This document shows positions 9,614 through 10,411 of a stretch of 30,959 nt of DNA, piece by piece. The first letter of the stretch is position 1; each line of letters begins with the position of its first letter. The DNA is from a virus. Taxonomy: Duplodnaviria; Heunggongvirae; Uroviricota; Caudoviricetes. Location: positions 1-30,959 of the IMG/VR virus record IMGVR_UViG_2531839474_000010; one strand, given 5' to 3'. Position numbers and translations under genes: made by a program. The notes below the pieces were generated by a model that was not told where the DNA came from, made no database searches, and saw only the letters and a program-made list of their open reading frames with translations.

Positions 9614-9841
9614 ATGACAAATCAAACCATTCAACTCGCAATCAGTATTACAGGTAGTCAAAAACGACTGGCAGATCTATGCGGTGTAGCCCAGCCCACT
9701 GTTTGGCGTTGGCTACACGGTGGCGGAATTGATGCCCGCTATGTAATGAAAATTGTCTCAGCCACTGGTGGAAAGATTAAACCAGCAGATATTCGTCCCG
9801 ACCTTGCACCATTGTTTAACGCGAGTAATTCTGCCGCCTAA
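9614..9841 (+). CDS. cro: Cro/YdaS-like small HTH regulator
   Basis: Small ORF divergent from cI with HTH-like segment QKRLADLCGVAQPTVWRWLHG; AGGA 7 nt upstream of the ATG at 9614. Confidence 0.78.
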   Translation: MTNQTIQLAISITGSQKRLADLCGVAQPTVWRWLHGGGIDARYVMKIVSATGGKIKPADIRPDLAPLFNASNSAA

Positions 9842-9865
9842 ACTGCGGCGTTAACTGATAAGGCA

Positions 9866-10411
9866 ATGCCTATGCAACCACTTACATACCAACAGACTAG
9901 CGGATTTAGCCCGACTGCGGTGATAAATCGTTCTCAAATAAAACAGGTGCCAGGCCACGAAAAAATCCGTGATGCCGTTCGCGCCTGGTCGGCTGCAGAT
10001 AATCAGGATGTTGTTGCCGCACTCATTGTGAATGAGTATCGGGAGCAGGGCGGCGGCACCATCGATTTCCCTGATGATGTCAGCCGTGCACGCCAGAAGC
10101 TGTTCCGCTTCCTCGATAACAAATTCGATTCTGAAAAATACCGAAATAACGTGCGTGAACTGACCCCGGCAATTCTGGCGGTACTACCGCTGGAATATCG
10201 CGGTTACCTGGTTGAGCAGGATAGCTTCATGGCTAGGTTGGCTGAAATGGAAAAGGAACTCAGTGAGGCAAAACAGGCTGTCATTCTCAACGCACCACGC
10301 CACCAGAAACTGAAGGAAATTAGTGAAGGTATTGTGTCGATGTTTCGTGTGGACCCAGATCTGGCTGGTCCATTGATGGCGATGGTTACTACCATGCTGG
10401 GGGCGATATGA
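9866..10411 (+). CDS. YdaT-like protein in the cII position (tentative family call)
   Basis: 181-aa ORF directly after cro; segments EYREQGGG and LTPAILAVLPLEYR resemble recalled YdaT-family sequence. Start could be the second ATG at 9872. Confidence 0.6.
   Translation: MPMQPLTYQQTSGFSPTAVINRSQIKQVPGHEKIRDAVRAWSAADNQDVVAALIVNEYREQGGGTIDFPDDVSRARQKLFRFLDNKFDSEKYRNNVRELTPAILAVLPLEYRGYLVEQDSFMARLAEMEKELSEAKQAVILNAPRHQKLKEISEGIVSMFRVDPDLAGPLMAMVTTMLGAI

Follow-up and report, generated by a model that had tools for sequence, protein, structure and literature searches.

The window analysed here is a DNA stretch of 30,959 nucleotides that comprises positions 1–30,959 of the virus record IMGVR_UViG_2531839474_000010. 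It carries an immunity region whose layout, defined by sequence, Pfam and PHROG matches, is that of lambdoid phages: a divergent repressor gene, a spacer of 110 bp, a gene coding for a protein of 75 residues, an open reading frame (ORF) of 181 codons, and then the replication genes O and P (Table 1). The gene at the cro position codes for a helix-turn-helix (HTH) protein of the YdaS family and the gene at the cII position codes for a member of the YdaT family; they are called cro and cII in the following. Very probably the pair codes for the regulators of lysis and lysogeny, of Cro type and CII type, in the immunity region of a lambda-like prophage, neither protein being a toxin or an antitoxin. 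The module combines a CII of the phi80 type with a Cro of the YdaS type in one of several interchangeable immunity sets. This assignment is carried by family membership, predicted fold, gene order, mosaic pairing of the two genes and conservation of DNA motifs.

Families, fold and pairing of the two proteins

The 75-residue protein matches Pfam family PF15943 (YdaS_toxin) with 54.6 bits (E 9.6e-15), above the curated cut-off of 30 bits, and the PHROG profile phrog_35 'transcriptional repressor' (E 9e-24). Its sequence shows weak similarity to the solved Cro protein 3bd1 and to XPH1 (5w8y), both with E ~1e-3. Membership of the Cro type fits with the PF15943 score, with the orientation divergent from the repressor and with three operator-like repeats that overlap divergent promoter-like sites. 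The protein of 181 residues translated from the complete second ORF matches PF06254 (YdaT_toxin) with 103.3 bits (E 9.5e-30; curated cut-off 21 bits) and the whole of profile phrog_163 'CII-like transcriptional activator' (E 6.8e-67); PF06254 is present in all 120 homologues listed for it. In NCBIfam no model matched the CII-like protein, while the match of Cro was only sub-threshold. The lambda CII model of Pfam (PF05269, Phage_CII) does not match the second protein at E ≤ 0.1, yet the same model does detect the CII proteins of ST104, SH2026Stx1 and a Klebsiella phage. A sequence-only reading of the window had tentatively named both families, and the profile search that it proposed bears them out, both proteins scoring above the curated thresholds. 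Its gene of 181 residues exists as an ORF (9866–10411), but the start used by homologues and in the RefSeq annotation is the second ATG, at 9872, which gives 179 residues; the second immunity type described below joins cII exactly at that codon.

The second protein has weak sequence matches to the YdaT structures 8bt1 and 3c4r (E ~5e-4). In an AlphaFold2 model obtained from an alignment of 38 homologues (mean predicted local distance difference test score, pLDDT, of 78), residues 1–26 are disordered and precede a helical DNA-binding domain in which helix 45–58 and the recognition helix 70–82 are separated by 11 non-helical residues. A long 20-residue helix (119–138), which aligns with the long helix of 8bt1, and two further carboxyl terminal helices complete the model. 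A Foldseek comparison to the PDB gave significant matches only to the YdaT chains 3c4r and 8bt1, with probability 1.00 and template modelling (TM) scores of 0.69–0.72 when normalised to the target; the superpositions have a root-mean-square deviation of ~3 Å over 117–123 columns and, besides YdaT chains, no match was better than E = 0.4. As modelled, the second protein has the YdaT-type DNA-binding fold, including the gap between the two helices. Its Arg79 (numbering of the 179-residue form) aligns with R57 of Rac YdaT and with the FRW arginine of CP-933P YdaT ('Arg60' in the CP-933P paper), and is invariant in the 38 homologues. Note that DNA binding is lost in the H56A/R57A double mutant of Rac YdaT (PMC11879457). 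The protein probably forms a tetramer through its long carboxyl terminal helix.

The two genes have different partners in related phages. Co-inheritance was followed in 80 viral contigs that carry a CII 97–100% identical to that of the window: 53 of them have the Cro found here, while the other 27 have a Cro only ~46% identical to it together with a different CI amino terminus domain. The junction between these two versions of the immunity region is the start codon of cII. Phi80-type CII genes from different enterobacterial species have 34 distinct partners at the cro position (23 YdaS proteins, 3 lambda Cro proteins of PF09048, and other HTH proteins for the rest), meaning that at least three Cro families precede them. 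Relatives of the window Cro that are 56–85% identical to it are in turn followed by a Pfam Phage_CII protein in ST104, in a Klebsiella phage and in an Stx1 phage. This independent pairing of Cro and CII implies that the genes are not inherited as a cassette, which argues against a toxin-antitoxin module. Such mosaic pairing, as read from the compared sequences, is the behaviour of a phage regulatory module and not of an addiction cassette. The argument from gene position for a Cro/CII role, which the sequence-only reading had put forward, thus stands: the repressor is divergent, O and P lie downstream, the second protein is 67% identical to phi80 CII and has the modelled YdaT fold, and the pair does not travel as a cassette.

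Table 1. Features of the immunity region and its surroundings in the window. A point in the strand column marks features to which no strand is assigned.
Feature	Positions	Strand	Basis or comment
Cro-position gene, 75-residue HTH protein, YdaS family	9614–9841	+	Pfam PF15943
CII-position gene, 179 residues (ORF also opens at 9866, 181 residues)	9872–10411	+	YdaT family, phi80 CII type
GTGATAAATCGTTCTCAA, degenerate YdaT box in cII codons 17–22	9920–9937	.	Predicted CII site of the establishment promoter
TAGTCT, predicted −10 of leftward CII-dependent promoter (pRE analogue)	9899–9894	-	20 bp left of the box
TTGATAATGACAAATCAA, tentative second CII site over the cro start codon	9608–9625	.	One mismatch to TTGATT-N6-AATCAA
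GC-rich hairpin GCCGC-ctaaact-GCGGC over the cro stop codon	9833–9849	+	Sequence comparison
Candidate oop/M3-like antisense unit between cII and O	10427–10523	-	Promoter scan, fold, phi80 annotation
CI-type prophage repressor, 230 residues from ATG at 9503	8811–9503	-	Amino terminus HTH and carboxyl terminus S24 (LexA-like) self-cleavage domain
Putative O_R region, three operator-like pseudo-palindromes ~25 bp apart	9512–9530, 9539–9555, 9562–9580 (region 9511–9582)	.	Repeat comparison
Rightward promoter-like site over O_R	−35 TTGATT 9554–9559, 17-bp spacer, −10 TATTAT 9577–9582	+	Promoter scan
Leftward promoter-like site over O_R	−35 TTGACC 9539–9534, 17-bp spacer, −10 TAAATT 9516–9511	-	Promoter scan
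Presumed O_L operators, left of the SIR2 gene, half-sites same as O_R	6787–6837	.	Inverted repeats
Lambda-type replication gene O	10408/10498–11427	+	Pfam Phage_rep_O; phrog_277
Lambda-type replication gene P	11424–12101	+	Pfam Phage_lambda_P; 3' end contributed by adjacent insertion sequence (IS) element
tRNA-Thr(CGT)	1369–1444		3' of left-end aldehyde-dehydrogenase-family host gene
Tyrosine integrase	1459–2622	-	Beside tRNA-Thr

Predicted CII box and leftward promoter

The 5' part of cII carries a conserved nucleotide motif, defined in a set of 50 phi80-type genes with 48 distinct 5' regions. Codons 17–22 read nTGATw-N6-nnTCAn in all 50 genes, with TGAT and TC 100% conserved despite differences among the amino acids encoded (M/L/V-I-...-A/S/N/D/F/Y-Q). 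The Ile18 codon is ATA in 41 genes and ATT in 9 but never ATC, which accounts for 57% of the isoleucine codons elsewhere in the same genes, and codon 21 always ends in T across six different amino acids. This codon usage at both positions points to a constraint at the nucleotide level. On the minus strand, 20 bp left of the motif, TAnnnT is invariant in 48/48 distinct 5' regions. It overlaps codon 9, which is always NNT (AAT 25 times and AAC 0, AGT 12 and AGC 0), although AAC and AGC are the favoured codons in the rest of these genes. The predicted leftward start is near 9887, which would place the centre of the box at ~−41.5. This is the usual position of an activator that overlaps the −35 region. 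No standard −35/−10 pair fits beside the box, only TAnnnT at 20 bp being conserved there, as expected for an activator-dependent promoter.

The nine more distant family members examined all have TAnnnT beside their box. The gap is 20 bp in Rac, Rac-SA53, a CP-933P-like phage and phages of Klebsiella (two), Citrobacter and Aeromonas; it is 21 bp in another Klebsiella phage and in an Actinobacillus phage. The box straddles the start codon (offset −7) in genes for proteins of ~140 residues and lies inside the coding sequence (+48) in the long phi80 type, so that the disordered amino terminal extension of the latter covers the whole predicted promoter. About as likely as not is a family-wide arrangement in which the CII-dependent establishment promoter is immediately adjacent to the YdaT box, the box being centred at ~−41.5/−42.5 of a leftward start that is set by TAnnnT 20–21 bp away. 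If the promoter does lie beside the box, the 26-residue disordered extension of the long phi80-type proteins would be coding sequence laid over a promoter. The conserved box-promoter geometry is the only new element here; it refines the picture in a testable way but is no discovery about the locus itself. It provides a cheap and specific handle to locate the establishment promoter of the YdaT-type CII family.

The published YdaT box of Rac has a good −10-like hexamer, TATGAT, exactly 20 bp to its left (2152–2195), and two CP-933P YdaT relatives (659–702 of each compared stretch) have TATGAT and TAGCAT at exactly the same distance. With these hexamers next to the box, a box-adjacent promoter could explain the YdaT-dependent leftward transcription that has been ascribed to a promoter ~190 bp away. 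The reporter constructs of the Rac and CP-933P papers apparently included the box-adjacent DNA as well (PMC11879457, PMC9986795). A promoter at this position, if real, would lead to a re-interpretation of the reporter data of both papers.

Regulatory reading, its alternatives and the prophage setting

In the proposed mechanism the rightward early promoter gives rise to Cro, which would compete with CI, encoded divergently, for the three operators of the 110-bp spacer. After infection, CII would bind the degenerate inverted repeat in its own codons 17–22, ~41.5 bp upstream of the predicted start, and would activate a leftward transcript, antisense to cro and extending into cI, leading to the establishment of lysogeny. 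An oop/M3-like antisense RNA on the 3' side of cII probably tunes CII expression. Any harm to cells upon over-expression would be incidental, of the kind reported for lambda CII and Rac YdaT. The module is probably a working one; phages recorded with laboratory E. coli hosts carry it at ~97% nucleotide identity, and their records annotate the genes as cI, cro and cII.

Several points weigh against this reading. The window box agrees poorly with the published consensus, from which it differs at 4 of the 12 specified positions, and the predicted −10 hexamer TAGTCT is weak. The conserved nucleotides could have a role at the RNA level in the cII messenger and not represent a DNA site. The activated reverse promoter of Rac was placed ~190 bp from the box (PMC11879457), and the CP-933P box was described as lying downstream of the start or covering it (PMC9986795). 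No convincing CII box is found near int/xis, the position of a pI analogue, where position weight matrix (PWM) scores reach at most 8.2 against a mean shuffled maximum of 13.8; the Q region is absent from the window, which puts a paQ-type target outside its reach. For the window allele, binding of CII at the predicted sites, a promoter with a start near 9887, activation from it, the tetrameric state and an antisense RNA are inferred. Finally, with an IS element after P and no ren-nin-Q-lysis genes, the switch may have no lytic programme left to control.

The alternative that survives best builds on this last point and concerns the present use of the genes, not their identity: they would be intact leftovers with no current role in a defective prophage. 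An IS3-family element (~12099–13409; inverted repeats TGAACCGCCCCGG..., ALIL frameshift pseudoknot at 12434–12550) begins at the last codon of P, whose stop codon it supplies, and on its right side adjoins a short HNH gene (13426–13602) that is followed by terminase genes. In the closest genome P is followed by ren, nin, Q and lysis genes, all of which the window lacks. Both IS junctions together were found in no complete E. coli genome of the collection. Against a loss of role, both reading frames are intact, Cro is identical in 50 of the 80 viral contigs and the CII-like protein is 97–100% identical on all 80, and the corresponding switch of other cryptic prophages is still functional and bistable (PMC8630535). 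The leftover state is considered rather unlikely, though it is the most serious of the alternatives.

A second candidate CII site overlaps the start codon of cro. It is the one single-mismatch copy of the published box in the 31-kb window and its top PWM match, the second best being the box inside cII 312 bp away. The two positions raise the alternative that CII mainly represses rightward early transcription through the site at the cro start, possibly by looping to the box in its own gene, and does not activate cI. The Rac YdaT footprint covers the ydaS promoter, the ribosome site and the first codons in addition to the box (PMC11879457), and the YdaT tetramer has two DNA-binding faces (PMC9986795). 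However, 0.11 matches as good as the cro start site are expected by chance per window, the local G+C content being only 32%, and the site is absent from relatives with the same Cro type, in which codon 4 is AAA and not CAA. The site is treated as tentative in view of this chance expectation and lack of conservation, and was rejected as a conserved second site on the same grounds. In Rac, moreover, YdaT binding barely affected the rightward promoter (PMC11879457). A mainly repressive role of CII is unlikely.

A type II toxin-antitoxin module, with YdaT as the toxin and YdaS as the antitoxin or as a second toxin, is largely refuted and most improbable: the family names ('Bacterial toxin YdaS/ydaT' in Pfam, 'toxin YdaT domain-containing protein' in RefSeq), in line with the remark of the sequence-only reading that such pairs have been annotated as toxin-antitoxin, and the reported harm to cells of over-expressed Rac YdaS and YdaT (PMC5917428) are set against the independent inheritance of the two genes, the DNA-binding and not toxin fold modelled for the second protein, a search of the PADLOC defence and toxin-antitoxin library that gave no defence or toxin match for either protein save a marginal HTH match for Cro, the lack of toxin-antitoxin behaviour of homologues in published tests (Jurenas 2021, PMC8630535; Christensen-Dalsgaard 2010 as cited in PMC9986795 and PMC5917428), and the origin of the toxin label in an algorithmic prediction (PMC5917428). 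The label has practical consequences. Of 5426 complete E. coli genomes, 2225 have matches to parts of the immunity region and 717 contain at least 80% of it; the RefSeq name of the CII-type protein in those genomes is 'toxin YdaT domain-containing protein', and surveys of toxin-antitoxin systems can be misled by it.

The repressor has Peptidase_S24 (E 1.3e-18) and HTH_3 domains according to Pfam, and matches phrog_4 and phrog_6201 'CI-like repressor'. The spacer between the repressor gene and cro would function as O_R operator and promoter region; the predicted start of its leftward promoter falls at or beside the cI ATG, so that the cI messenger would be leaderless like that of lambda pRM. 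The inverted repeats I1 and I3 link 6787–6833, at the presumed O_L, with 9548–9583 (81–84% complementary). Gene O probably starts at the ATG at 10498 after GGAGG and not at 10408; the phrog_277 alignment to the O ORF begins only at residue 31.

The candidate antisense unit between cII and O comprises a promoter-like site, TTGAAT-17-(TG)CATAAT at 10523–10495 (promoter scan), and a strong hairpin at 10461–10427 with a weak U tail (fold −25.2 kcal/mol, z = −2.7). It occupies the position of the phi80 M3 RNA, annotated as 'homolog of lambda oop RNA'. The Rfam search gave no oop-like match, finding only a tRNA and the IS frameshift pseudoknot. The hairpin over the cro stop codon is also present in phi80 (2962–2978 of the compared phi80 stretch) though the upstream genes differ, whereas the second immunity type, with the same cII, lacks it. 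It was considered as a nutR boxB and rejected, being unlike the annotated phi80 nutL core CACGTAAACGTG.

The host gene, tRNA-Thr and integrase at the left end define a prophage inserted beside a tRNA gene, possibly at the proA-thrW locus. In the genome that best matches the immunity region, the copy sits at icd with a different integrase; the same immunity module is thus found in prophages with different integration modules. A gene for a 535-residue SIR2_2-domain protein (7097–8704, minus strand) occupies the place of lambda rexAB, with the repressor gene on one side and the presumed O_L/pL on the other. Along its whole length this protein matches PDC-S25, a candidate defence family of PADLOC (E 1e-235), ThsA-like SIR2 models giving weaker matches, and it is probably a prophage-borne anti-phage protein expressed in the lysogen. 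A tail sheath protein with Phage_sheath_1 domains, encoded in the late region (21419–22915, plus strand), shows that a contractile tail is joined to the lambda-like early genes; the combination may reflect a mosaic phage or an IS-associated rearrangement.

Relation to known systems

The family assignment and the Cro/CII reading are already known from the literature, and many phage records are annotated accordingly. The argument that these genes are Cro and CII and not toxins is explicit in Jobling 2018 (PMC5917428), where the original Cro/CII assignment is credited to Casjens 2003. In CP-933P, YdaS and the CI analogue PaaR2 share operators, YdaT activates a leftward promoter and the pair is not toxin-antitoxin; the homology between YdaT and the CII of phi80 is noted in the same work (Jurenas et al. 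2021, PMC8630535). The structure of YdaT was solved by Prolic-Kalinsek et al. 2023 (PMC9986795), who described a tetramer that binds TTGATT-N6-AATCAA at the ydaS/ydaT junction. The same box was found in Rac over the ydaT start codon, with box-dependent leftward activation toward racR (Wons et al. 2025, PMC11879457).

The window Cro is, like the other YdaS-family Cro proteins, a PF15943 member encoded divergently from a repressor across an operator-rich spacer; the operator sequences of the window are specific to its own immunity type. It is 32% identical to Rac YdaS and 69% identical to the products of genes annotated cro in the Salmonella phages ST104, ST160 and BTP1. Unlike in the window, the next gene in phages that carry the closer relatives codes for a lambda-type CII.

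The closest characterised system for the second protein is phi80, whose CII (JX871397 PHI80_49; X13065) is 67% identical to it over the full length of 180 residues. The phi80 protein belongs to the same Pfam family and its gene has the same place between a cro-position gene and an O-like replication gene. It has the same amino terminal extension with nTGATw-N6-nnTCAn at codons 17–22, one half of the box being TCTCAA in the window and GCTCAA in phi80, and the antisense M3 RNA lies just 3' of cII like the candidate antisense unit described here. The immunity of phi80 is different, its CI, operators and gene 30 being unrelated or only marginally related to those of the window; gene 30 scores 29.8 bits on YdaS_toxin, just below the cut-off. 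Phi80 cII was reportedly defined genetically by Ogawa and co-workers in 1988, and the gene is annotated cII in the GenBank records X13065 and JX871397.

The Rac (E. coli K-12 b1358) and CP-933P (8bt1) YdaT proteins are members of the same Pfam family that are only 27–35% identical to the window protein, the value for Rac being 35% over the DNA-binding domain. They have ~140 residues, whereas the window protein features ~26 more residues at its amino terminus and two more helices at its carboxyl terminus. As in the window, the gene comes after one of the YdaS type in the immunity region of a prophage and has an inverted-repeat box at its 5' end with TAnnnT 20 bp to the left. Lambda CII (PF05269), with pRE and OOP, has the same gene position and is an analogue of the window CII, not a member of its family. 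The lambda CII site is a direct repeat, TTGC-N6-TTGC, and that of the YdaT family an inverted one (PMC9986795). The proposed job is nonetheless the same: activation of a leftward promoter over the 5' end of its own gene, from which transcription would run antisense through cro into cI. Lambda CII and the characterised YdaT relatives are both tetrameric, and in lambda an antisense RNA unit lies on the 3' side of cII, as the candidate unit does in the window.

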